A stretch of 34,706 nucleotides of DNA, taken from NCBI GenBank assembly GCA_046758305.1, contig JBHHZW010000001.1:1-34706 (forward strand), given 5' to 3'. The position numbers were made by a program, and so were the translations under genes. Source of the stretch: Bacteroidota bacterium (GTDB taxonomy: Bacteria; Bacteroidota; Ignavibacteria; UBA10030; JAZGDE01). Under the pieces are notes generated by a model. It was not told the origin of the DNA. It saw only the letters and a program-made list of their open reading frames with translations, and made no database searches. This document shows positions 6,175-21,131 of the stretch, in pieces; the stretch's first letter is position 1, and each line of letters starts with the position of its first letter.

Positions 6175-7326
6175 ATGGATAGATTGAAAGTACTCATCAC
6201 AAACTCGATGCCGTTTCTAGGAGGCGCCGAAAAGTTTGCATGGAAGCTCGGGAAAGGCCTCCTTGGTTGTGGTCATAAGGTCTCCTTTGCGGTGAAAACG
6301 CATTCAGCCCTCGCTGAGCTACTTCAGAGTGAGCATCTGGTTGTCCACAGACTTCCGATGAGGGGAGACGCGGATCCATATTCTTTGCTTTCGATGATAC
6401 GACTGACGCGGGCAAAGAGGACGGACATTATCTTGTCGACCTGCGAACGTGATTTCCGATTAGCCGGTCTGGCGACAAGGTTAGGAGGGAGGGGAAGGGT
6501 CATTCCACGGTTGCGATCCGTCTGGCCTCCAGACCGCAAACACTGGGCGAAAACCGTCCGGTTTTGCCGACAACGGTTCAACTACAGATTCTTTGCCTCT
6601 AGGATTATCACCAACTCGGTGGAAGGTAAACGAGATTTGGTTGAAGGTGGTTGGATGAAGGAGGGTACAGTGGAAGTGGTGTACAACGGAGTGGATCTGA
6701 GGATCTTCGATCCTGCCCGAGTCGAGAAGGGAGCGGTCAAACAGCAGTTAGGGATTTCGCGAGATGCGACCATGGTAACGCTCATTGCACGGATCGCGGT
6801 GGAGAAAGGTCAGGCCCTGTTTGTCGACGTTGCTGAGAACCTGCTGGAAGACCATCCGCACACGTACTTCTTGATCGTCGGTAGGCCGACAAGCCAGAGT
6901 TACTATGAGGAGTTATTGCGCCGTCTCCGCAGCTCTCAGTACGGTGATCACATTCTACTCACCGGTTTTCGAGATGACGTGGAGAGCGTGCTCGCGGACA
7001 CTGATATTCTTGTTCTTCCTTCTGTTGAAGAGGGACTGCCGAACGTCGTGCTCGAAGCGATGGCAATGGAATGTCCCGTGGTAGCAACAGACGTCTGCGC
7101 AACGAACGAAGCAGTCGAAGACGACGTCACCGGCTATCTAATCCCGTTCCCCATTTCGAATGATCTCTTGGTAGGCCGATTGCGTTCGCTCATTGAGGAT
7201 CGAGAGCTGAGGAGAAGAATGGGGCATCAAGGGCGTCGAAAAGTGGAGGGAAAATTCGATTTTGAGCAGACTTTGCGTCGCTATGAGGAAGTGTTTGCCA
7301 GGGTGAATCGGGGAAAAAGTCTTTGA
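6175..7326 (+). CDS. Glycosyltransferase family 4 (GT-B fold)
   Basis: From the ATG at 6175 the N-terminus is MDRLKVLITNSMPFLGGAEKFAWKLGKGLLGCGHKV, a typical GT4 start. The C-terminal EX7E-like region is PSVEEGLPNVVLEAMAMECPVVATD. The TTG-initiated 36-aa extension in the ORF track (6067) is not protein-like. Confidence 0.85.
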   Translation: MDRLKVLITNSMPFLGGAEKFAWKLGKGLLGCGHKVSFAVKTHSALAELLQSEHLVVHRLPMRGDADPYSLLSMIRLTRAKRTDIILSTCERDFRLAGLATRLGGRGRVIPRLRSVWPPDRKHWAKTVRFCRQRFNYRFFASRIITNSVEGKRDLVEGGWMKEGTVEVVYNGVDLRIFDPARVEKGAVKQQLGISRDATMVTLIARIAVEKGQALFVDVAENLLEDHPHTYFLIVGRPTSQSYYEELLRRLRSSQYGDHILLTGFRDDVESVLADTDILVLPSVEEGLPNVVLEAMAMECPVVATDVCATNEAVEDDVTGYLIPFPISNDLLVGRLRSLIEDRELRRRMGHQGRRKVEGKFDFEQTLRRYEEVFARVNRGKSL

Positions 7327-7389
7327 ATTCGACACGGTTTTTGTGTATATTAGCATACTTTTCTCGGGATCAGAAGGATAAGATTCAGG

Positions 7390-8382
7390 ATGGCTGTTTT
7401 CCTAGTGACCGGAGGTGCGGGATTTATCGGATCACATCTCGTCGAGCGCTTGCTGGGGAGGGATCAGACGGTCGTCTGCTTGGACAACCTTGATCCGTAC
7501 TACGGGCCGGAACTGAAGTGGAGAAATCTCTCCTCAGTCAGTGGCCATCCACAATTCACGTTCGTTGAAGGAGACATACGCGATCAGCAGCTCCTGAACA
7601 ACCTCTTTGGACGGCATCGGTTCGACGTCGTTGTCCATCTTGCAGCAAAGGTGGGCGTCTATCCATCTCTGACGCGAGCGGACGAGTTCGCGGATGTCAA
7701 TGTCAGGGGTACGCTAAACGTGCTGGAGGTGATGAGAAAACATCACGCCTCGGGGTTGATCTTCGCTTCCTCCTCCTCGGTCTACGGTGGATCCACTAAC
7801 ATCCCTTTTGTCGAGACTGATCCGGTGGATCGGCCGATATCACCGTATGCGGCAACGAAGCGGACAGGTGAGCTCCTTTGCGCGCTCTACCATCATCTCT
7901 GGAATTTCAACGTCGCATGTTTGCGGTTCTTCACCGTCTATGGTCCACGTCAGCGTCCTGAGATGGCGATTCATACATTTACTCGGCTCCTGAGTGAAGG
8001 GGAAAGGATTCAAGTCTTCGGTGATGGTTCGACGGCGCGCGATTACACGTACATCGACGACATTCTCAATGGCGCTCTCAAGGCCATCGACAATCTCCGA
8101 GGTTTTGAGATTTACAACTTGGGTGGATCTCGGCGTATCCAGTTGAGGGAGCTCATCAGGCTCATTGGGTCCTCCGTGGGAAAAAAGGCGGACGTCGAAC
8201 ACTTGCCTGCGCGTGCAGGGGAGATGCCAATCACAGAGGCCGACCTTCGGAAGTCTCGAGAGATGTTGGGCTACGACCCACGCGTGCGGATCGAGGAAGG
8301 CCTCCAGAGGTTTGTGCGATGGTTTCTGAATGACAGTCGAAGTGTTCACGACGCAACCGAACGGAAAGCATCAGCATCATGA
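7390..8382 (+). CDS. NAD-dependent sugar-nucleotide epimerase/dehydratase (UDP-glucuronate/UDP-hexose 4-epimerase-like SDR)
   Basis: Rossmann motif GGAGFIGSH and catalytic YAATK. 330 aa. Its stop overlaps the next start (ATGA at 8379-8382). Confidence 0.88.
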   Translation: MAVFLVTGGAGFIGSHLVERLLGRDQTVVCLDNLDPYYGPELKWRNLSSVSGHPQFTFVEGDIRDQQLLNNLFGRHRFDVVVHLAAKVGVYPSLTRADEFADVNVRGTLNVLEVMRKHHASGLIFASSSSVYGGSTNIPFVETDPVDRPISPYAATKRTGELLCALYHHLWNFNVACLRFFTVYGPRQRPEMAIHTFTRLLSEGERIQVFGDGSTARDYTYIDDILNGALKAIDNLRGFEIYNLGGSRRIQLRELIRLIGSSVGKKADVEHLPARAGEMPITEADLRKSREMLGYDPRVRIEEGLQRFVRWFLNDSRSVHDATERKASAS

Positions 8383-9092
8383 AGGCTGGCATCATTTCGG
8401 CCGGAGAAGGTCTGCGGCTGAGAGAAGATGGAATTCAGACCCCTAAACCCCTCGTGGAGGTCGATGGTGTCCCGCTCATAGATCGCCTGCTCACTGCCTT
8501 CACGGAGAATGGTGTCGCGGAGACTGTCTGCATCGTGAACGAGACGGACTCGGCGATTCAACGGCACGTCAGTGCTTTATCACTTCCTCTTCCCGTGCGT
8601 TTCATCCGCAAAAGGACCGAGAGTTCGATGCACAGCCTGTTCGAGCTTTCTCCGTATCTCACAGACGGCTCGTTTTTGCTCACGACTGTGGATTCTGTCT
8701 TCGATCCGGATGAATTTCGCCGCTTCGTGCTCTACTGCCAGCGGACCAAGGAGCTCGGTGGGATTCTTGCGGTCACAAAATTTGTTCAAGATGAAAACCC
8801 TCTCTGGGTTGAAGTCGACCATGACAATCGTGTCGTCCGCGTAGGGCAGAACCTGCCGTCAGCACTCTATGTGACAGGAGGGATCTACTATTTTTCTCCC
8901 TCCATATTCAGGGAGAAGGGAAATGCGCTTCGCCAGGGAGTCTCACGCTTGCGCAATTATCTTCCCCTTCTCGTCGAAAGCGGATACCGGTTCCATCCCT
9001 ATGTGTTCTCGAAAATCGTCAATGTCGATCATGCCGAGGACATCATCACAGCCGATCACCTTTTGAAATCTGTCAGGACTCTTCGCTCGTAG
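8379..9092 (+). CDS. Sugar/alcohol-phosphate nucleotidyltransferase (NTP_transferase fold)
   Basis: The N-terminal loop MKAGIISAGEGLRLRE....PKPLVEVDGVPLIDRLL is a variant of the GxGTRL nucleotidyltransferase signature. 237 aa, translationally coupled to the epimerase. The substrate cannot be read from the sequence. Confidence 0.7.
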   Translation: MKAGIISAGEGLRLREDGIQTPKPLVEVDGVPLIDRLLTAFTENGVAETVCIVNETDSAIQRHVSALSLPLPVRFIRKRTESSMHSLFELSPYLTDGSFLLTTVDSVFDPDEFRRFVLYCQRTKELGGILAVTKFVQDENPLWVEVDHDNRVVRVGQNLPSALYVTGGIYYFSPSIFREKGNALRQGVSRLRNYLPLLVESGYRFHPYVFSKIVNVDHAEDIITADHLLKSVRTLRS

Positions 9093-9098
9093 AAGGCT

Positions 9099-9881
9099 AT
9101 GGACGCTGCCGTTTTGCGCATATCCGACCGGATCAAGGGAAAGGTTTACAATATTCAGCGCTATTTCTTCTTTTGCGCGGATACAGTCTTGGCTTTTCCG
9201 TCAGCCTTCCGGTATCGTCGGGACACGCTGGAGCAAATGTACGTGAACGGAGTTCAGGCCGTTACTATCACGGCGATGGGGGGTCTGTTCATTGGATTAA
9301 TCATGGCGATTGAGACAGGGCATCGATTTGAAGCCTTTGGTGCGAAGCTGCTCGTCGGCCGCACGGTGGCCCTTGCGGTGGTGCGAACGCTTGGGCCGGT
9401 CATCACCGGTCTCATGCTGGCGGCGCGCAATGGGTCGAAGAACGCTGCTGAACTTGGTTCGATGCAGGTAAGCGAGCAGATCGATGCGCTCAAAGCCTTT
9501 GGGACAGACCCGATTGCCAAGCTTGTCGTCCCAAGAGTGATCTCGTCATTGATCATGTTCTTGCCATTGACACTTCTTGCCGATGCGATTGCACTCATCG
9601 CAGGTATGTGGGTTTCCGATGTCTGGCTTCACGTCGATCCCGTCTTCTACTGGAGTTCCGCGATCAACGGATTGCGGATGCAAGACCTGATTGTGGGTTT
9701 CACAAAGCCATTCACGTATGCATTTGTTATCTCGACGATCAGTTGTTACTATGGACTCACAACGACCGGTGGTACTACGGGCGTCGGTCGGGCGACAATC
9801 AACGCTGTCGTCATGTCATCGATTGTGGTATTATTCGTGGACTTCATCTTCACGAAGGTGGTCTGGGAATTGCTGAAGTAA
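9099..9881 (+). CDS. mlaE: MlaE-family ABC transporter permease
   Basis: 260 aa. Conserved MlaE core: VRTLGPVITGLMLAARNGSKNAAELGSMQVSEQIDALKAFGTDP. Confidence 0.9.
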   Translation: MDAAVLRISDRIKGKVYNIQRYFFFCADTVLAFPSAFRYRRDTLEQMYVNGVQAVTITAMGGLFIGLIMAIETGHRFEAFGAKLLVGRTVALAVVRTLGPVITGLMLAARNGSKNAAELGSMQVSEQIDALKAFGTDPIAKLVVPRVISSLIMFLPLTLLADAIALIAGMWVSDVWLHVDPVFYWSSAINGLRMQDLIVGFTKPFTYAFVISTISCYYGLTTTGGTTGVGRATINAVVMSSIVVLFVDFIFTKVVWELLK

Positions 9882-9906
9882 TCTGACAATTGCTGGTACG
9901 ATTGCA

Positions 9907-10647
9907 ATGGACATGATCCGATTGGAAAACGTGACGCTGGAGCTCGGAGGGAAGAAGGTTCTGTACAACGTCAGTCTGCGCCTTCACGAAGGTGAAACGA
10001 AAGTAATCCTTGGACCAAGCGGTGCAGGGAAAACGACCATTCTCAAGGCCATTTTGGGGCTGTTGAGACCGCAGTCAGGACGTGTGACCGTCTGCGGCGT
10101 GGAGTTGACGCGACTCCGTGAGAGAGATATCATACCGGTACGGCGGGAAATCGGCATGGTCTTCCAGGGGAATGCATTGTTCGATTCTCTCTCCGTGGCG
10201 GAAAACATTCTCTTCTTTGTCCGTGAGAACAATCGGATGAGTGAAACGGAAATGGACCAGATTGTTGAGGACATGCTCCAGCTGTGTAACCTCGGAGCGA
10301 TCGGTTCTCTGATGCCCGACGAGTTGAGCGGTGGGATGCGCAAGCGGGTTGCCATCGCCCGTGCACTCGCGTTTCATCCGAAGATCATTCTCTATGATGA
10401 ACCGACGACAGGTTTGGACCCGATCAATGCAAGAATGATAACGGACGTTATGGATAAGCTGGGCAGTGAAAGGCACGTCGGTTCGGTCGTTGTCACGCAC
10501 ATCTTGCGGGATGCCTATTCCGTGGCGGATACCGTCGCAATGATAAAGGAGGGGGTGATTGTCTTTGACGGGTCGTTCGACGAAATTCGCTCCTCACAAG
10601 AATCGTTTATCCAAGAATTTCTCTCAGAGATTAACTATTCAGACTGA
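9907..10647 (+). CDS. mlaF: MlaF-family ABC transporter ATP-binding protein
   Basis: Walker A GPSGAGKTT, signature LSGGMRKRVAIARAL and Walker B ILYDEPTTGLD. Confidence 0.9.
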   Translation: MDMIRLENVTLELGGKKVLYNVSLRLHEGETKVILGPSGAGKTTILKAILGLLRPQSGRVTVCGVELTRLRERDIIPVRREIGMVFQGNALFDSLSVAENILFFVRENNRMSETEMDQIVEDMLQLCNLGAIGSLMPDELSGGMRKRVAIARALAFHPKIILYDEPTTGLDPINARMITDVMDKLGSERHVGSVVVTHILRDAYSVADTVAMIKEGVIVFDGSFDEIRSSQESFIQEFLSEINYSD

Positions 10648-10661
10648 GGTACCGAAACCGT

Positions 10662-11462
10662 ATGCGATGGGTCCTCGTTCTTGTCGCTCTTCATCTCGTG
10701 GCGACGTCATTTGCACAGCGACCGGTCCTCGTTACGGAAGAGCCTTTCACCCTCGGTGACGGCAATCAAGTCATTGGTCTGGGATTTGAGTATCTTCGCA
10801 AGTCCTCTAGCGATGAAGGGATCAGCTTATCGCGACTCTGGAAGGTACCTGTTCTCCAGGTTGAAGTTGGACTTGGAGAACGAGTCAATTTCCAACTCCA
10901 CTGGCGGGGTGGGCTATTTGCGAGATCGAGCGATGGAGCCAACGCGTCCGATTTCGGTGACCTCTTCCTCGCGACGAAGATCCTCATCCTGCGAGAAACA
11001 CATGGACTTCCTGCGCTTGGATTCAAGTATGCTGTGAAGCTCCCGATGACGGGAGATGAAAAAGGGCTGGGAAGTGATAACACGGATTTTTTTGGTTCTT
11101 TGCTTTTCTCTAGAAAAATTGGTATCGTGGCAAGCCGGTTGAACCTTGGCATCGGCATCCTCGGGCATCCGCGCGCGCAAAACGCGCAAGACGACATCTA
11201 CACGTATGGCGCGGCACTCCTTCTTCCGATCAAACAGTCGGTTGCATTGTTCGTGGAAACGGCGGGCTTCTTTGGGCCGTTTGAGGATGATGACAAGCTC
11301 GTTGGGCGTTTGGGTCTTCAAGTCCGTAGGTTCGACCTTGGGTGGGCAGCATTTGGGGGCGTCAAGCTTTCTGGAACGCCTCGCGATTTCAGTACCGCGT
11401 TCGAATTGAGTGAGCGTTGGGGAATTGGGGTCTTTGTTTCTAAAGACATGCAACTGTGGTAG
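10662..11462 (+). CDS. Predicted outer-membrane beta-barrel protein, family unassigned
   Basis: Cleavable signal peptide MRWVLVLVALHLVATSFAQ. Alternating hydrophobic/polar strands run throughout, and the C-terminus GIGVFVSKDMQLW ends in an aromatic residue (OMP beta-signal-like). It sits between mlaF and mlaD with 14-nt and 45-nt gaps. Confidence 0.55.
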   Translation: MRWVLVLVALHLVATSFAQRPVLVTEEPFTLGDGNQVIGLGFEYLRKSSSDEGISLSRLWKVPVLQVEVGLGERVNFQLHWRGGLFARSSDGANASDFGDLFLATKILILRETHGLPALGFKYAVKLPMTGDEKGLGSDNTDFFGSLLFSRKIGIVASRLNLGIGILGHPRAQNAQDDIYTYGAALLLPIKQSVALFVETAGFFGPFEDDDKLVGRLGLQVRRFDLGWAAFGGVKLSGTPRDFSTAFELSERWGIGVFVSKDMQLW

Positions 11463-11507
11463 GATGTTTTCCGCGTTTCTGAAGCGCTAGATCGGCTATT
11501 TGTTGTC

Positions 11508-12470
11508 ATGGACAAGCAGACTTTTCGTTGGTCAGAGATCACGGTTGGAGTCGTTCTCGTCATCGCTTTTGGAGTCTTTCTCGTCGCACTAATCTTGGTG
11601 GGAAGCAACGTCAAGCTGTTTTCACCGACCTACTCCTTGAGGATGTTCGTGCCGAATATCGAAGGTCTTGTCGACGGCTCGATGGTCACGCTCGCCGGCA
11701 GGAAAGTGGGGTTCGTGAATGATATCCGATTTGCACAGCAGGATGGGATGAATGGAGTAGAAGTCGAACTCAGCATCGATACGAAGTACCAATCGCAGAT
11801 CACCAAACGGTCGAAGGCGACGATCAAGACGATCGGATTGCTGGGGGATAAGTACGTGGACATCACGCTCGGACAAACAGGTGAGAGGGTTCTGGCTGAA
11901 GGCGATCACGTCGCAGTGGACTTGACTCCCGACATCGCCGAAATATCAAGGAAGGTCTCCAGTGCGATTGACGATTTTGTCGAAACCGTGCGGCATGCAA
12001 GAAACATTACGCAAAAAATCGATGAGGGCAAGGGAGCGGTGGGTAGGCTCGTGAATTCTGAGGAGATGTCCGCGGGCCTGGACCGGTTCATCGCCTCCGT
12101 GAGTCGTATCACGGCAATCATGGAGTCGAAGAGCAGCACGGCGGGGAGAATGCTCCGGGACACCACTCTCTTTGTGGATTTGAGTGCAGTGGCGGAGAAC
12201 CTCAGTGAAATAACGACGAAAATCAGGCGCGGTGAGGGAACACTCGGAAAAGTTGTTACCGACCCGGCACTGTACGAAGAACTTTCTCGATTCGCGAATA
12301 AGTCTGATGCGCTCCTATCGAAGATGAACAACTCCGGCAGCTCTGCAGAAAAGCTCCTGACCGACCCTCAGTTGTACGATGAGCTCGTCCAGTTGATGAA
12401 GGTTCTCAATACGCTGGTGTCGGACCTCAAGGAGCATCCGGACCGGTACTTCCACTTTTCGGTCTTCTAA
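11508..12470 (+). CDS. mlaD: MlaD/MCE-domain protein, long form
   Basis: N-terminal TM anchor (VGVVLVIAFGVFLVALILVG) followed by an MCE domain. The extended C-terminal region has three related segments: GKGAVGRLVNSEEMSAGLDRF, GEGTLGKVVTDPALYEELSRF and SAEKLLTDPQLYDELVQL. 320 aa. Confidence 0.85.
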   Translation: MDKQTFRWSEITVGVVLVIAFGVFLVALILVGSNVKLFSPTYSLRMFVPNIEGLVDGSMVTLAGRKVGFVNDIRFAQQDGMNGVEVELSIDTKYQSQITKRSKATIKTIGLLGDKYVDITLGQTGERVLAEGDHVAVDLTPDIAEISRKVSSAIDDFVETVRHARNITQKIDEGKGAVGRLVNSEEMSAGLDRFIASVSRITAIMESKSSTAGRMLRDTTLFVDLSAVAENLSEITTKIRRGEGTLGKVVTDPALYEELSRFANKSDALLSKMNNSGSSAEKLLTDPQLYDELVQLMKVLNTLVSDLKEHPDRYFHFSVF

Positions 12471-12518
12471 TGTTGGGTTACAGGGTCAACGCTTTTCGGT
12501 CCGTAAGAGCCGCTCCAA

Positions 12519-12597
12519 CACGCCACGAAGTGGTGGCTTCGCCAAAGTGTTCCTTAGAAAAGGAGTCCATCACGCCACGAAGCGGTCAGTTCGTGGC
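12519..12597. repeat. Imperfect 23-nt direct repeat, each copy hairpin-capable, in the mlaD/ATP-grasp intergenic gap
   Basis: CACGCCACGAAGTGGTGGCTTCG (12519-12541) and CACGCCACGAAGCGGTCAGTTCG (12571-12593) match at 19 of 23 positions. The second copy forms a perfect 8-bp stem, GCCACGAA(12574-12581)/TTCGTGGC(12590-12597). No T-tract follows. Confidence 0.4.
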
Positions 12598-12675
12598 ATG
12601 TCGTATCGGACCTTCGGGAAAGGGGATTTGGCCATAGATTAAGGATTCTTTCACTGTCGAGACCAGAAGAACAGT

Positions 12676-13521
12676 ATGAAACTAAATTTTCTCGGAATTC
12701 GGCGGGATCCGAGATTCTCCCCAAGCCACGTGCAGAATGACGGCGAGATATTTCGATTGACCGCAGAGGCGTTGCGGCAAAGGGACTTCGTCGTTGTGGA
12801 GAAAGAAGAGAAGGAGGTCGGCTCCTTTTCGCTCGAGGCGCCTGCAGTGTTCACGATGTCGCGAAGCGTGGAGGCGTTCTCACGATTGCTTGTTCATGAG
12901 CAGCGGGGAAAACAGATCATCAACAGTCCGACAGGCGTTCTGAATTGCTATCGGTTCAACATGGTTTCGTTGTTACCGCAAGCAGGCATCCCGTTTCCCC
13001 GAGGCCTGATTGTTCAGACAGAGAATGGGCAGGTCTTGCCGGGATTTCTGCGCGACTCAAACCATGTGTAGGTGAAACGCAGCGATGTCCACGCGGTGGC
13101 AAAGACGAAGGATGTGTCTCAAGCCCACTCGCTTGGAGAGATCGGGAACGTGTTTCAGGATTTTCGAGCGCGTTGCATCGATAGTGCAGTGCTGCAGGAA
13201 CACATCGAGGGGGAGACGGTCAAGTTCTACGCAGTGCGCGGCGGATCATTCTTCCGATGGTACTTTCAGGACGAGAACTTGCAGGGGCCCCTCAATCCTG
13301 ACCGACTGTTTGTTCTCGCCGAGCGGGCTGTTGCTGCTCTGAACATCGAAATTTATGGTGGCGACGCCATCGTCACCTCTTCGGGCGAGGTCGTTATCGT
13401 CGACATGAACGATTGGCCTACCTCTGCTCGATTCCGTGAGGAAGCAAGCCGAGCGATCGCAGATTACCTCATTGGACGGTTTACTAGCTTTTGGAAGAGA
13501 CTGCGAGAAAAGCGCTGGTAG
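12676..13521 (+). pseudogene. ATP-grasp family enzyme interrupted by one in-frame TAG (13069-13071); appears in the ORF track as two same-frame ORFs of 131 and 149 aa
   Basis: Both ORFs are in the same frame, and the second 'start' is simply the GTG codon that follows the TAG. Read through, the junction is ..FLRDSNHV[TAG]VKRSDVHAV.., followed by the ATP-grasp-like core VLQEHIEGETVKFYAV and GGDAIVTSSGEVVIVDMNDWP (Mg/ATP-site-like). Confidence 0.6.
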
Positions 13522-13546
13522 AGCATTCCTGTCTTACTAACGTCAA

Positions 13547-13567
13547 GCTAGGCACGATTGGCCTAGC
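13547..13567 (+). terminator. Hairpin downstream of the ATP-grasp gene; weak terminator candidate
   Basis: GCTAGGC (13547-13553) pairs with GCCTAGC (13561-13567) around a 7-nt loop. No U-tract follows, so its function is doubtful. Confidence 0.25.
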
Positions 13568-13609
13568 ATCGGGGAGGCAGTACGTTCCGGCAGAACTCTT
13601 GACGCTTTC

Positions 13610-13843
13610 ATGCAATCGATTGAATCTCATCAACTTGTCGTACCATTCAACGATGTGCTAAGTAAGTTGATGGAGGAGGTGGGTTGGGGGTCACACGGAA
13701 CGTTCCTTGCGATTTCTTCCTCGTACGGGCCCGGATTTGATCACGAGTTCCAGAAGAAGGTGGATCCCGCCAGCGTCGCGGTAGACCTTCGCTTTTTGCG
13801 AGATCTTGGGCTCTCAGAAAAGCGTCGGACAGGAGAGTCATGA
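13610..13843 (+). CDS. Hypothetical 77-aa ORF
   Basis: An open frame only. I recognise no motif and see no clear SD. It fills the gap between the ATP-grasp and CDP-alcohol transferase genes. Confidence 0.2.
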   Translation: MQSIESHQLVVPFNDVLSKLMEEVGWGSHGTFLAISSSYGPGFDHEFQKKVDPASVAVDLRFLRDLGLSEKRRTGES

Positions 13844-13886
13844 TCCAGATTTGCGGGTGAAGTCGTTCTCGGTCAGCCGTTTGGGT

Positions 13887-14795
13887 ATGTCACAGATTGA
13901 ATCAACATTAAAGTCCCTCGAGGTTGAAGAAACAATCGACCTCTATTTTTTCCGTCCCCTCGGGTATTTCTTCGCACGTGTGTGCCAGAAGCTGGGCGTT
14001 ATGCCCAACGCCGTGACCGTCGCGAGCATCGTGCTTGGAGTGCTTGCCGGTCACCTTTTCTATTACCAGAGCCTTACCATCAATATCGTTGGTATTGCTC
14101 TCTTCCTGCTTGCAGACGTCTTTGACAGCGCCGATGGCCAGCTGGCCCGGATGAACGGCGCCTCCTCTAAGTTCGGACGGATCCTGGACGGGGTCGCGGG
14201 CAACTTGATCTTCGCGAGCATTTACGTCCATTTCTGTCTTCGACTTCTCGAGCAGGGGCACAGCCCGCTGGTATTTCTCTTGGCTTTGGTCGCCGGCACC
14301 AGCCATTCTTTCCAGAGCGGTATGTCCGATTACTACCGCAATGCCTTCCTGGGGTTCGTGAACGGAAAGGGAGAACTGGAATCCTCATCGAAGATCGCTA
14401 AGGAGTATCGCTCCTATCGGTGGCATTCACGTGATGTCGGAAAGAAGCTCCTGTTACGCGTCTACTTAAACTATACGATCCAGCAGGAATTGCTCTCCAG
14501 AAACTTTCAGCGTCTCCGTGAGGCGGTCGCTCGAGTGTGGGGGGGCAGACTTCCCTCTTCGTTTTCAGAACTGTACCGCGGTAAGAACAAGCCGATGATG
14601 AGGTTGTATTCGACGCTCTCGACCAACTTGCGGATCATCGTCATGTTCATCGTGATTTTCGTTGACAAGGTCATTCTCTACTTATGGTTTGAAGTTCTTG
14701 TGCTGAACGCATTGTTGGTGATCACAGTGATTTTCCAGGAGCGGATTAACAGGAACCTCATCGTATGGGTGGAGACACACCCCGAGGCTGGATAA
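13887..14795 (+). CDS. CDP-alcohol phosphatidyltransferase family protein
   Basis: Signature D80-SA-D83-G-QL-AR-x8-G97-RIL-D101 (DSADGQLARMNGASSKFGRILD) in a polytopic membrane protein. I prefer the ATG at 13887 over the TTG at 13806. The fourth canonical Asp position is Gly (see findings). Confidence 0.85.
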   Translation: MSQIESTLKSLEVEETIDLYFFRPLGYFFARVCQKLGVMPNAVTVASIVLGVLAGHLFYYQSLTINIVGIALFLLADVFDSADGQLARMNGASSKFGRILDGVAGNLIFASIYVHFCLRLLEQGHSPLVFLLALVAGTSHSFQSGMSDYYRNAFLGFVNGKGELESSSKIAKEYRSYRWHSRDVGKKLLLRVYLNYTIQQELLSRNFQRLREAVARVWGGRLPSSFSELYRGKNKPMMRLYSTLSTNLRIIVMFIVIFVDKVILYLWFEVLVLNALLVITVIFQERINRNLIVWVETHPEAG

Positions 14796-15803
14796 ATGAG
14801 AAGGGTGGAGCTCATATTTTTCGTCGTCGGTATTGCCATCTTAGCGTACCTTGTGCACGCGTTCGGCCTCGGGAAGCTGATCGAAAACCTCCGGGACAAT
14901 GCGTGGATCATTTTCGCTCTCATCGGGACCTATTTCGGAGTGTACCTTCTCAACACGGGGGCCTTCCGAATCGTTCTTGGAAAGGAGACCAATCGCATCA
15001 GTTTCTCCCAGCTGTTTGGCATCACGGTTTCGGGTTTCGCGATCAACTACGTGACACCTTTCGTCAACCTTGGAGGCGAGCCGTATAAGATCCATGCGCT
15101 GTCGAAAAAGCTCGAAGCGTCACAATCGGTCTCGTCGGTTGTCTCCTTTCGAATGCTTCACATCCTCGCGCATCTGTTCAGTTGGTTGACCGCGATCATC
15201 CTCGCGTTCTTCTTTATTGACATTACGATTCCGCTCCTGCTCCTCCTGCTGGTAACGGGTTCGATCATTCTCGTCCTTATCGCACTCGTCTTTCTTGGAC
15301 ACGAGAAGGGTTTGTTCGAGAAAGTTCTCAAACTGTTGTCCAAGGTATCCTTCCTGCGCTTGTTTGCCCAGAAGCTGCAGCGGAAGGAGGAGGTGATTCT
15401 TCAGATCGATGAGGAGATTCGGCAGTTCTACCATGAGCGAAAAAAAGATTTCTATGGAGCACTCGGTCTTGAATATCTAAGCCGGATCGTGCAAAGTATC
15501 GAACTGTACCTGATCTTCTCCACCCTGAGCGCTCCGTTCAACTTTGTGGAGATTTATTTCATCTTCGCCGCATCGTCCATGATCAGCAACTTGCTCTTCT
15601 TCTTTCCGATGGAGATTGGGGTCAAGGAAGGAGGATTATTTGCAATCCTCAGCTATTTCCTATTTTCGCCTCTCCTGAGTATTTATATCGGCGTCCTGAT
15701 CAGGATCCGTGAGTTTTTCTGGATTGTATTCGGGTTGGGTATGATTCTGGTGAACGGGGGTTGGACTCGGGTTGTGCAAATCACGGGAGGGAGGAAGGGA
15801 TGA
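14796..15803 (+). CDS. UPF0104 / lysyl-PG-synthase-TM-like ('flippase-like') polytopic membrane protein
   Basis: 335 aa with about 8 TM helices. A central amphipathic linker and the family-typical FFFPMEIGVKEGGLF segment are present. It starts immediately after the preceding TAA. Confidence 0.7.
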   Translation: MRRVELIFFVVGIAILAYLVHAFGLGKLIENLRDNAWIIFALIGTYFGVYLLNTGAFRIVLGKETNRISFSQLFGITVSGFAINYVTPFVNLGGEPYKIHALSKKLEASQSVSSVVSFRMLHILAHLFSWLTAIILAFFFIDITIPLLLLLLVTGSIILVLIALVFLGHEKGLFEKVLKLLSKVSFLRLFAQKLQRKEEVILQIDEEIRQFYHERKKDFYGALGLEYLSRIVQSIELYLIFSTLSAPFNFVEIYFIFAASSMISNLLFFFPMEIGVKEGGLFAILSYFLFSPLLSIYIGVLIRIREFFWIVFGLGMILVNGGWTRVVQITGGRKG

Positions 15804-16492
15804 GATGGGATGTCGATGCGTTGCTGCTCGACTTTGGCGGAACGATCGATGCGGACGGTATTCATTGGGGAGAGCGGTTCTTCCAGTTCTACCGCGAAGC
15901 GGGAATCGAGTTGCCGCGAGCCCAGTTCGATGAGGTCTTTGAGAAAGTGGACGCGGAGATCCAGGATCGCGACGTTGAACATTCTAGGTTCCGAGACCTC
16001 GTGGCGCTTCAAGTTCACACCCAGTGCATACATCTCAAAATCGAGTCGGGGGTCATTCAGCAGCAAGTAGTCGACCGAGCGGTGCGGGATGCCGCTGTCT
16101 GCATTGAGGGTAATAAGAAGATCCTACAACAGTGTGCTCGTTGCCTGCGGCTGGGATTGGTCTCGAACTATCACGGCAACCTCCTCACCGTGTGTCGGGA
16201 ATTCGGTCTCGACGATATCTTCGGCGTGATCGTGGATTCGAAGATCGTCCGTGTTGAGAATCCGAATCCGAAGCCATTTGAAATCGCGCTCGGTGCGCTC
16301 AGGGTAGAGCCTGAACGCGCGGCGTTCGTCAGTGATTCTTACAACAGTGACATCGTTGGATCGAAATCGCTTGGACTGAAGACGATCTGGCTGCAACACG
16401 AGATGAATCGAATCCAGGGCGATCCAACGAAAATCGACACGATCGTTCGTTCTTTGGAGGAACTCGGAACGTTGATTTGTTCAGAGTGTTGA
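15800..16492 (+). CDS. HAD-superfamily hydrolase (subfamily IA-like)
   Basis: Motif I LLLDFGGTI, motif II LGLVSNY and motif IV FVSDSYNSDI. I chose the ATG at 15800, which overlaps the upstream TGA (ATGA) and is preceded by GGAGGGAGGAAGGG. Confidence 0.8.
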   Translation: MRWDVDALLLDFGGTIDADGIHWGERFFQFYREAGIELPRAQFDEVFEKVDAEIQDRDVEHSRFRDLVALQVHTQCIHLKIESGVIQQQVVDRAVRDAAVCIEGNKKILQQCARCLRLGLVSNYHGNLLTVCREFGLDDIFGVIVDSKIVRVENPNPKPFEIALGALRVEPERAAFVSDSYNSDIVGSKSLGLKTIWLQHEMNRIQGDPTKIDTIVRSLEELGTLICSEC

Positions 16493-16520
16493 AGCAACGA
16501 ACAAAGGAAGGCAGCGTCTT

Positions 16521-17834
16521 ATGGACCGGAAACGTGTGCAACCCCCGAAGGGGAAACTCGGCGTTTTGCTCGTTGGACTCAACGGCGCCGTCTCGACCAC
16601 CTCCGTTGCGGGAGTTCTGACGGTACGCAGAGGAAAAGCGAAGCCAATAGGATCCCTCACGCAGATGGGACACATCCGTCTGGGCAAACGGACAGAACAA
16701 CGATCCCCTCTCATCAAGCACTTCGTCCCCCTCACTGAACTGAAAGACTTGGTGTTCGGCGGCTGGGATATTCGGAACGAGGACCTCTATACTTCCTCTG
16801 TGAAAGCAGCGGTCTTGGAGCGGGGGCATCTTGACCCGGTGAAGAGTGAACTCCAAAAGATCCGGCCGATGAAGGCAGTGTTCGATCGGCGGTACGTCAA
16901 ACGTATTTCAGGCACGCATGTGAAACAAGGGCGGAACAAATATGAACTTGCGCTCCGATTGCGGGAGGACATCCGGACGTTCAAGAAGAAAAACGGCCTC
17001 GATCGAGTGGTCATCATCTGGTGCGGTAGCACGGAAACCTACATTAAGCCTAGCGGCGTGCACCAATCGATCGAAAAGCTCGAAGAAGCAATGAAAAAGA
17101 ACCATAAAGACATCCCACCGAGCATGCTGTATGCGTACGCGGCGATCGCTGAAGGCGTTCCCTACGCGAACGGCGCACCGAATCTTACTGTTGACATCCG
17201 TGCCCTGATTGAGTTTGCAAAGGAGAGGGGTACGCCCATCGCGGGCAAGGATTTCAAGACAGGCCAGACATTGGTGAAAACGGTGGTCGCTCCGATGCTC
17301 AAAGCGCGAATGCTTGGCCTCCACGGCTGGTTCTCCAGCAACATTCTCGGCAACCAGGACGGCGTTGTGCTCGACGATCCAGGGTCGTTCAAGACCAAGG
17401 AGAAGAGCAAGCTTTCTGTCCTCGAGTACATTCTGCAGCCAGAGCTGTACCCTGACCTTTACAAGGATTTTTACCATCTTGTCCGCATCAATTACTATCC
17501 ACCGCGCGGTGACAATAAGGAGGGTTGGGACAATATCGACATCTTTGGCTGGCTGGGATACCGCATGCAGATCAAGATCGATTTCCTCTGTCGGGATTCC
17601 ATCCTTGCTGCTCCGATCGTTCTCGACCTTGCGCTCTTGCTCGACCTTGCAAGACGCGTCGGCTTGCACGGAATTCAAGAGTGGCTCTCGTTTTACTTTA
17701 AGAGTCCAATGGTCGCTTCAAGTCTCTACCCGGAACACGACTTGTTCATTCAGCTGATGAAGCTCAAGAATAACCTGCGGTATATCATGAGGGAGGAGTT
17801 GATAACGCATCTCGGCGTCGAATATTACGACTGA
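16521..17834 (+). CDS. ino1: myo-inositol-1-phosphate synthase
   Basis: 437 aa. N-terminal NAD-binding GVLLVGLNGAVSTT, IIWCGSTE, and the conserved WFSSNILGNQDG (the SxxxLGNxDG block of MIPS). An SD (AAGGAAGG) lies upstream. Confidence 0.92.
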   Translation: MDRKRVQPPKGKLGVLLVGLNGAVSTTSVAGVLTVRRGKAKPIGSLTQMGHIRLGKRTEQRSPLIKHFVPLTELKDLVFGGWDIRNEDLYTSSVKAAVLERGHLDPVKSELQKIRPMKAVFDRRYVKRISGTHVKQGRNKYELALRLREDIRTFKKKNGLDRVVIIWCGSTETYIKPSGVHQSIEKLEEAMKKNHKDIPPSMLYAYAAIAEGVPYANGAPNLTVDIRALIEFAKERGTPIAGKDFKTGQTLVKTVVAPMLKARMLGLHGWFSSNILGNQDGVVLDDPGSFKTKEKSKLSVLEYILQPELYPDLYKDFYHLVRINYYPPRGDNKEGWDNIDIFGWLGYRMQIKIDFLCRDSILAAPIVLDLALLLDLARRVGLHGIQEWLSFYFKSPMVASSLYPEHDLFIQLMKLKNNLRYIMREELITHLGVEYYD

Positions 17835-17854
17835 ATTGGCGTGTCTCTGCAAAG

Positions 17855-17893
17855 GGTCGACTCCTGCTGTGTGGGGGTCGGCCTTTTCTTTTT
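17855..17893 (+). terminator. Rho-independent terminator after ino1
   Basis: The stem GGTCGAC (17855-17861) pairs with GTCGGCC (17877-17883), 7 bp including one G-U, around a 15-nt loop. TTTTCTTTTT follows at 17884-17893. Confidence 0.55.
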
Positions 17894-21044: not shown

Positions 21045-21059
21045 TGGCACTATATTTGA
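21045..21059 (+). promoter_or_regulatory. Sigma-54 (-24/-12) promoter candidate upstream of PFOR
   Basis: TGGCAC-tatat-TTGA matches the consensus TGGCAC-N5-TTGC with correct spacing. The one mismatch is at the conserved -12 C. It lies 73 nt upstream of the PFOR ATG and directly downstream of a sigma-54 activator gene. Confidence 0.45.
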
Positions 21060-21131
21060 CCAAAAAAGCAACGGTCCAAGCGTGCGCATCAAGTGTCTGG
21101 TACCATTCGAGGTCATCTTTACGGAGAAGGT

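Follow-up and report, generated by a model that had tools for sequence, protein, structure and literature searches.

We describe a gene array in a stretch of bacterial DNA of 34,706 nucleotides (nt; hereafter the window), which is the entire contig C1 of a metagenome-assembled genome (MAG) of an uncultured bacterium of the class Ignavibacteria, phylum Bacteroidota (G000; 3.07 Mb in 674 contigs, 94.5% complete). Positions 8379-17887 of the window probably represent a conserved alternative inositol-lipid operon in which the genes of a specialized MlaEFD lipid transporter are nested, and the two genes at 6175-8382, for a GT4 glycosyltransferase and a sugar epimerase, are best regarded as a genus-specific neighbor. 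The inositol genes encode an NTP transferase, a CDP-alcohol phosphatidyltransferase (CDP-AP), a HAD-family hydrolase and MIPS; the biochemistry that we propose for them is read from sequence and gene context.

MlaEFD Genes Nested Among Inositol Genes

The window's MAG and 40 relatives, 41 genomes of nine families, were searched for MIPS, MlaE and CDP-AP in a close comparison. MIPS was found in 11 of the 41 genomes, belonging to three of the nine families, and these are exactly the 11 genomes that carry an MlaE at least 63% identical to that of the window; the relatives are kin and non-independent, and linkage counts such as these are no statistical proof. Wherever the assembly allows, MlaE and MIPS lie 6-10 kb apart on the same contig and strand. 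MlaE is missing altogether from several families of the window's order, and G028, a 99%-complete member of a MIPS-bearing family, has neither MIPS nor MlaE. A check for an empty site in G028 showed no clean deletion site; the genes that flank the cluster in G021 are multi-copy or non-syntenic in that family.

The conserved order of the cluster is NTP transferase, mlaE, mlaF, mlaD, ATP-grasp, a gene of 470 amino acids (aa), CDP-AP, a 340-aa gene, HAD and MIPS, with reading frames that overlap or abut. The succession NTP transferase-mlaE-mlaF-mlaD-...-CDP-AP-...-HAD-MIPS recurs, with proteins 47-73% identical, in three families that belong to the window's order, and the nesting spans several families and at least two orders. 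A flippase-like gene directly follows mlaD in one family and stands later in the array in others. Since mlaE, mlaF and mlaD separate the NTP transferase gene from the rest of the inositol genes, the transporter lies inside the inositol module, not beside it. No published account of an Mla system within an inositol-lipid cluster came up in literature searches.

The same arrangement was seen on a wider scale when species-representative genomes were searched with a CDP-AP profile, which returned 322 related places, 80 of which were kept as loci. The order NTP transferase, then MlaEFD, then CDP-AP occurs in 28 of these 80 loci, and all 28 are labeled Ignavibacteria, Bacteroidota or (mis)named Chlorobiaceae. 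Mla is lacking from five further complete clusters of the Ignavibacteria type and from 10 Bacteroidales loci (Prevotellaceae, Dysgonomonas, Muribaculaceae, and Porphyromonadaceae), which read NTP transferase-ATP-grasp-CDP-AP-(flippase-like)-HAD-MIPS. On a CDP-AP tree, Mla accompanies 31 of 36 Ignavibacteria-type rows and none of 26 Bacteroidales-type rows, a distribution that needs at least four changes of state. Beyond the interval from NTP transferase to MIPS, the flanks of the eight loci inspected are unrelated to one another and contain no glycosyltransferase. In G020, a 66%-complete MAG, the MIPS end of the cluster occurs twice in diverged form, on contigs C49, C90, and C87 (L012-L014), which probably reflects mixed strains in one bin.

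The MlaE of the cluster also belongs to a lineage of its own, as judged from 200 high-quality genomes sampled from the window's class. An MlaE at least 51% identical to the window's was found in 14 of them, and each of the 14 has a CDP-AP orthologue 3-6 kb away on the same strand; 11 of the 14 carry one to three extra MlaE homologues (32-40% identity where listed). MlaE proteins of 41-48% identity were found in eight genomes, all without the cluster. The 32-40% paralogues and the 41-48% group form separate, well-supported clades in the MlaE tree, and the approximately unbiased test gives no grounds to reject one lineage for the cluster copies (p = 0.48). The cluster-type MlaE lineage was seen only in the context of the inositol cluster. 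Within the 41-48% sister clade, mlaE-mlaF-mlaD operons with an equally long MlaD were observed at L009 (7263-9848) and L010 (6962-9517); as their neighbors in the two genomes inspected are unrelated genes (a regulator, a methyltransferase, TonB, and helicases), these are stand-alone mlaEFD operons.

Correspondence to the Putative Alternative Inositol-Lipid Cluster

A putative alternative inositol-lipid cluster, consisting of NTP transferase, CDP-AP, HAD and MIPS genes, has been described in Bacteroides (Phocaeicola) vulgatus and Prevotella and linked to the production of inositol sphingolipids, which are made by Bacteroides and Prevotella species that possess only this cluster type (Heaver et al., 2022, Nat Microbiol, PMC9246714). 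The NTP transferase was proposed to make CDP-inositol, the authors stating that the functions are unconfirmed, and an LPG-synthase-like gene lies near both Bacteroides inositol clusters; neither an Mla nor an ATP-grasp gene is mentioned for the alternative cluster (PMC9246714). All four of its genes are present on one strand within 8379-17834 of the window, with a flippase-like gene nearby. The window's CDP-AP is 40-46% identical over its full length to copies from Prevotellaceae, Dysgonomonas, and Muribaculaceae that lie in NTP transferase-ATP-grasp-CDP-AP-HAD-MIPS arrays (B. vulgatus was not among the loci). The CDP-APs of the window and of Bacteroidales fall into one tree family, both without the fourth Asp at the canonical position, and the D-x-G-G-T motif of the HAD protein is common to both groups. 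Thus matched, gene for gene, the inositol module of the window is the putative alternative CDP-inositol lipid cluster of Heaver et al. (2022). The two versions differ in that MlaFED is nested in the window and in most Ignavibacteria and in none of the Bacteroidales, and in that the ATP-grasp gene, conserved in Bacteroidales, is a pseudogene in the window.

The individual enzymes fit this assignment to varying degrees. The NTP transferase gives a weak match to the inositol-phosphate cytidylyltransferase (IPCT) half of model NF041135 and has 4JD0 as its best PDB match, which we take to be the Thermotoga IPCT. Orthologues in relatives lie directly 5′ of mlaE or of the ATP-grasp gene, and the protein is, on these grounds, a putative IPCT-like enzyme encoded by the conserved first gene of the inositol operon. 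For CDP-AP, the best PDB match is AF2299 (4O6M), and the best-scoring models are those of AF2299 and archaetidylinositol-phosphate synthase, all far below their cut-offs. Its motif (14124-14204) has Gly-Asn where the fourth signature Asp is expected; this position is Gly in 68 of the 80 loci (Gly-Asn in 34 and Gly-Asp in 33), with Gly-Asn in the Ignavibacteria copies checked and Gly-Asp in the Bacteroidales ones. Motif I of the HAD protein, D-x-G-G-T (15830-15844), lacks the second Asp and is kept in all 50 of 50 orthologues. Both deviations are family-wide properties and not defects of the window copy. The flippase-like gene is present in most related clusters, in varying positions.

A second set of inositol-related genes was observed elsewhere in the MAG. 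On contig C93 (L096, 4569-6796), a gene for an IMPase/FBPase-type phosphatase is directly followed by one for a 469-aa fusion of an NTP transferase and a CDP-alcohol transferase. The fusion gives a full-length match to the bifunctional IPCT/DIPPS model NF041135, at 7e-83 and below the cut-off. The two genes are the pair expected for di-myo-inositol-phosphate synthesis, so the single MIPS of the window would feed two routes. A weak CDP-AP-like match in a similarly long frame of 513 aa was observed in G001, a genome of the window's genus.

Components of the Transporter

MlaE is encoded once in the MAG, and MlaF has intact Walker A, signature and Walker B motifs, as read from the translation. MlaD, the only MCE protein in the MAG, has a transmembrane helix and a single MCE domain, and some 180 aa of its C-terminal part form helical repeats whose Gly-rich turns are conserved; its profile matches include MlaD structures, Mce1B (8FED_B) and, over the full length, a 312-aa Mce/MlaD protein (13hr_I). 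The monomer model of MlaD is confident for the MCE domain only, and the C-terminal helical region has a pLDDT of about 50-65. Like the Mla system of E. coli (MlaFEDB-MlaC-MlaA), the window encodes an MlaE permease, an MlaF ATPase and a single-MCE MlaD together. In contrast to that system, the window cluster has no MlaB gene, its MlaD has double the length, the C-terminal part being helical, and its genes sit inside a biosynthetic operon.

MlaC was not detected in the MAG by a PF05494 search. One strong MlaA match (226 bits) was found, on the 2.6-kb contig C415 (L095, 1608-2189), and none was found among the 40 relatives. C415 has no DNA counterpart in G001 and an unremarkable composition, and the size of the MAG (3.07 Mb vs. 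1.7 Mb for the 88%-complete G001) indicates that part of the bin may be foreign; C415 may be mis-binned. As a candidate outer-membrane partner of the transporter, this MlaA was treated as doubtful, given its absence from the 40 relatives and the missing counterpart in G001.

The 266-aa product of the gene between mlaF and mlaD had been called an outer-membrane barrel from sequence alone, and structure modeling agrees. The AlphaFold2 model is 12-stranded (pLDDT 80.6, pTM 0.78) behind an N-terminal signal peptide, and Foldseek matches it to FapF (5O65/5O67) and to the COG4313 channel 4RL8 (probability 1.0, TM-score 0.65-0.7). Homologues carry PF13557 (Phenol_MetA_deg), and the window protein itself falls below Pfam detection. 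The protein is thus predicted to be a 12-stranded outer-membrane barrel of the COG4313/FapF type. In the window's family the gene separates mlaF from mlaD, and a second family has it after MIPS. We considered the barrel as an obligatory subunit of the transporter and rejected this, since the barrel occurs without the cluster and is missing from one cluster-bearing family; together with its variable position, this points to a recruited accessory. Barrels of the COG4313 type are associated with the uptake of hydrophobic molecules, so the direction of transport may be import.

The nearest described transporter architecture is that of Mpc of Brucella (mpcEFDA), a chimeric Mla-Pqi system (Lannoy et al., 2025, PMC12436622). 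In Mpc, as in the mycobacterial Mce1 complex (8FED), the MlaE/MlaF-like engine works with a lengthened MCE protein; this protein is proposed to span the envelope in place of a periplasmic shuttle, and the operon also encodes a partner in the envelope. Neither Mpc nor Mce1 is known to be embedded in a head-group biosynthesis operon, unlike the transporter of the window. In trans-envelope MCE systems (Mce1, Pqi, Let, and Mpc), the MCE protein has a long helical extension that can cross the periplasm; the helical region of the window's MlaD may be such an extension and appears, in the low-confidence model, to be made of short repeats and not of one long needle helix. The partner also differs: in the window it is a beta-barrel, and in Brucella Mpc it is reportedly a PqiC-like lipoprotein.

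A Reduced Cluster in the Window's Genus

The window carries a reduced version of the cluster. Two open reading frames (ORFs) of 131 and 149 aa after mlaD are parts of one ATP-grasp gene, split by an in-frame TAG. Where the stop falls, 23 aligned orthologues have an invariant Trp, and a single TGG-to-TAG change is accordingly its simplest account. Intact orthologues in relatives are 42-45% identical and the gene adjoins CDP-AP in most of the 80 loci, and the family has weak profile similarity to ITPK-type inositol-polyphosphate kinases. A short remnant is left in G002 and the gene is gone from G001; with the stop in the window, it is thus decaying in this genus.

Full clusters in relatives (L003, 5881-9207; L006, 5419-10683) have the same NTP transferase-MlaEFD-...-CDP-AP-...-HAD-MIPS backbone and contain, in addition, a Gfo/Idh/MocA oxidoreductase (the 340-aa gene) and a class-III aminotransferase (the 470-aa gene); in one family there is also a second, small CDP-AP of 213 aa and a 155-aa protein without known family. 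The additional genes suggest oxidation and amination of the inositol head group. The window's genus is without the Gfo/Idh/MocA dehydrogenase, the class-III aminotransferase and the small CDP-AP, and it has gained the barrel between mlaF and mlaD and the GT4/epimerase pair at the 5′ side. With the amination genes absent and the ATP-grasp gene dead, the head group is probably plain inositol and not a modified (amino-)inositol. A 77-aa ORF before CDP-AP belongs to no family and has only a partial match (48%) in G002; it and the nearby spacers were considered as remnants of the aminotransferase gene, which relatives have at this position, or of the dehydrogenase gene and rejected, as tblastn gave no match. 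Between G000 and G001, the ratio of non-synonymous to synonymous substitution rates (dN/dS) is 0.15-0.38 for all eight intact genes tested. Purifying selection on these genes implies that the reduced operon is probably in use.

Extent of the Array and Neighboring Genes

Genes of the array and their strand were called from an ORF listing and Pfam/NCBIfam scans (Table 1). The array spans 6175-17834, all on the plus strand, and its successive gaps are 63, -4, 6, 25, 14, 45, 205, 0, 88, 43, 0, an overlap, and 28 nt. The initial annotation had counted 14 consecutive genes on one strand with short gaps. Strand and spacing held up; the tally is corrected to 11 intact genes, one pseudogene and one doubtful ORF, two of the supposed genes being the halves of the ATP-grasp pseudogene.

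Table 1. Features of the gene array, with positions in the window.
Feature	Position	Strand	Evidence or remark
GT4 glycosyltransferase	6175-7326 (ATG 6175; longer frame from TTG 6067)	+	Pfam Glycos_transf_1, Glyco_transf_4
SDR-type NAD-dependent sugar epimerase/dehydratase	7390-8382	+	Pfam Epimerase 2e-61
NTP transferase, candidate CTP:inositol-phosphate cytidylyltransferase	8379-9092	+	Pfam NTP_transf_3, NTP_transferase
MlaE permease, cluster-specific lineage	9099-9881	+	Pfam MlaE 3.7e-70; TIGR00056 above cut-off
MlaF ABC ATPase	9907-10647	+	Pfam ABC_tran; NF008809 3.8e-48, below cut-off
266-aa predicted outer-membrane beta-barrel with signal peptide, COG4313/FapF type	10662-11462	+	Structure model and Foldseek
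Long MlaD, 320 aa	11508-12470	+	Pfam MlaD; TIGR00996 aligned over residues 15-304
205-nt spacer	12471-12675		Duplicated hairpin-forming motif
ATP-grasp pseudogene (131-aa and 149-aa ORFs)	12676-13521	+	TAG at 13069-13071
77-aa ORF, doubtful gene	13610-13843	+	No family match
CDP-AP, alternative-cluster type	13887-14795	+	Pfam CDP-OH_P_transf
LPG_synthase_TM/UPF0104 flippase-like membrane protein	14796-15803	+	Pfam PF03706 2.2e-28; TIGR00374 above cut-off
HAD-family hydrolase	15800-16492 (frame also opens at TTG 15761)	+	Pfam Hydrolase, HAD_2
MIPS	16521-17834	+	Pfam NAD_binding_5 1.8e-104, Inos-1-P_synth; sole copy in MAG
Predicted intrinsic terminator, 3′ end of operon	17851-17887	+	17-pair stem, then T-run

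The 205-nt spacer after mlaD contains no terminator-like site. A motif of about 23 nt is present twice in it (12519-12597) and can form hairpins, with no T-run. A structured RNA was considered for this spacer and rejected, as there is no Rfam family match and the fold z-score is only -1.78. No convincing sigma-54 -24/-12 site was found 5′ of the GT4, epimerase or NTP transferase gene, the total of matches being at chance level. Downstream of the array, a -24/-12-like site (TGGCAC-N5-TTGA, 21045-21060) was observed just 5′ of a PFOR gene and 3′ of a gene pair for a PAS histidine kinase and a sigma-54 activator; the number of such sites in the window is that expected by chance. The listed GTG start of the histidine-kinase ORF (17841) falls within the terminator hairpin after MIPS (17841-17893), so its true start is probably further downstream.

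The GT4 and epimerase genes are not conserved with the genes that follow them. Neither has a homologue beside the cluster at any of the 80 loci, nor in the flanks examined at eight loci. In G001, the interval from tilS to the NTP transferase gene holds only C-terminal GT4 and epimerase fragments of 47-64% identity, and the genes next to these fragments are 89-98% identical to those of the window. All NCBIfam matches of the GT4 protein are generic and far below cut-offs, so that no equivalog-level model is reached, and there is no PimA/PimB-type model among the best 25 of its 40 matches. The end of the epimerase gene and the start of the NTP transferase gene share 4 nt, which makes co-transcription likely in the window genome. 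On sequence comparison, the GT4/epimerase pair is thus a genus-specific neighbor that may be co-transcribed with the conserved unit and lies outside it.

These results bear on the initial annotation, which had read the block as one functional unit making a glycosylated inositol phospholipid and delivering it to the outer membrane, and had suggested a comparison of neighborhoods in related genomes. In that comparison mlaEF-mlaD does co-occur with the inositol cluster, and the Mla and inositol genes stand as one conserved unit; GT4 does not co-occur, and neither it nor the epimerase is part of the unit. The nucleotidyltransferase, which had been placed in a glycosylation module, instead turned out to be the conserved, IPCT-like first gene of the inositol module in relatives and not a gene that activates sugars for the GT4 enzyme. 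The suggested likeness to mycobacterial phosphatidylinositol (PI) and its mannosides (PIMs) found no comparative support. The window's CDP-AP best matches AF2299/archaetidylinositol-phosphate-synthase models and not the PIP synthase that uses CDP-diacylglycerol, and the GT4 protein scores below every curated cut-off, its gene not being kept beside the cluster in relatives.

Discussion

From the genes and their order we infer the following route. MIPS would make inositol phosphate, which the NTP transferase would activate to CDP-inositol, and CDP-AP would transfer phospho-inositol to a lipid acceptor, either diacylglycerol or ceramide. The phospho-inositol lipid product may then be processed by the HAD enzyme and carried across the inner membrane by the UPF0104 flippase-like protein. 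Finally, MlaFED with its long helical MlaD would move the lipid between the inner and outer membrane, in either direction, and the barrel may help. It is conceivable that this MlaFED lineage is a head-group-dedicated intermembrane transporter that co-evolved with the operon for an inositol or amino-inositol lipid and that, in this genus, a hydrophobic-solute barrel between mlaF and mlaD was recruited as its outer-membrane end-point, which would place synthesis, flipping and export on one transcript. We advance this further proposal tentatively, as an attractive possibility that falls short of being probable.

Several observations weigh against a conserved inositol-lipid operon with a specialized transporter. 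CDP-AP is without the fourth signature Asp and the HAD protein without the second Asp of motif I, and their chemistry may differ from the textbook reactions. The ATP-grasp gene, kept beside CDP-AP in nearly all relatives, is dead in the window, which may mean a changed or impaired pathway in this genus. The barrel family is also found in genomes without the cluster and is missing from a cluster-bearing family (f4). The nested transporter is lacking from six of 20 cluster-bearing genomes of the class sample and from all Bacteroidales versions, which makes the transporter accessory to the pathway. Moreover, the MlaE of the cluster is the only MlaE in the window's own order and could serve general phospholipid traffic there, and characterized MlaFED systems are not known to be head-group specific.

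The last points are also those that favor linkage without shared function, in which a general MlaFED was inserted once into the inositol operon of an ancestor of the Ignavibacteria, was inherited with it and moves bulk phospholipids. The window genome has no other MlaE/MCE system, the nesting is explicable by one gain and a few losses, and the pathway exists without the transporter in Bacteroidales and some Ignavibacteria. We nevertheless consider this account unlikely. The nesting is still seen where the clusters have diverged deeply, with CDP-AP at only about 40% identity, and where the flippase-like and barrel genes have changed places; 11 of 14 genomes keep the cluster MlaE beside other MlaE paralogues, and in the sample the lineage was never met away from the cluster. 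No MlaE is present in several families of the order, and MIPS and MlaE are jointly missing in G028. Persistence of the nesting through divergence and rearrangement, the coexisting Mla paralogues and this joint absence are what a functionally coupled, specialized transporter would look like.

Two other accounts concern the product. Were the GT4 and epimerase part of the unit, they could glycosylate the inositol lipid in a PIM-like manner before MCE export, as initially proposed. GT4 enzymes do include inositol-phosphate and PI glycosyltransferases, the window protein has a weak match to the MshA model (81 bits vs. a cut-off of 462), and the two genes share the strand and probably the transcript of the operon. 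However, the pair is missing beside the cluster in the 80 loci and in the inspected flanks, decayed to fragments in G001 among otherwise well-conserved neighbors, and the GT4 protein is matched by generic models only, all of which renders glycosylation by this pair quite improbable. Alternatively, the NTP transferase, CDP-AP, HAD and MIPS could make a soluble osmolyte or thermoprotectant of the di-myo-inositol-phosphate type, with the Mla genes as passengers. The four enzyme types match that pathway, and the weak NF041135 (IPCT/DIPPS) matches and the relation of CDP-AP to AF2299, presumably a DIPPS-type enzyme, fit as well. Yet a canonical IMPase and fused IPCT/DIPPS-like pair with a full-length model match is already available on contig C93, the cluster includes genes for a flippase-like membrane protein and for a lipid transporter, and inositol sphingolipids are made by Bacteroides and Prevotella with the alternative cluster only (PMC9246714). 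A soluble product is therefore very unlikely, and the reading that we prefer for 8379-17887 is still that of an operon for an inositol lipid with its own transporter.

The cargo and direction of Mla/MCE systems are still debated, and those studied transport bulk phospholipids and are not tied to any pathway. Where a transporter lineage has been found only within an operon for head-group synthesis, as here, a candidate cargo is defined, with which specificity and direction become testable. If the dedication of this MlaFED holds true, it would be the first diderm MCE/Mla system for which the genomic context reveals the cargo. The window's genus, with no amination genes, a dead ATP-grasp gene and an added barrel, shows by comparison with the full version which parts of the cluster are dispensable. 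Finally, the nesting offers independent genomic evidence that the putative alternative cluster of gut Bacteroides and Prevotella makes a membrane lipid and not a soluble inositol compound.

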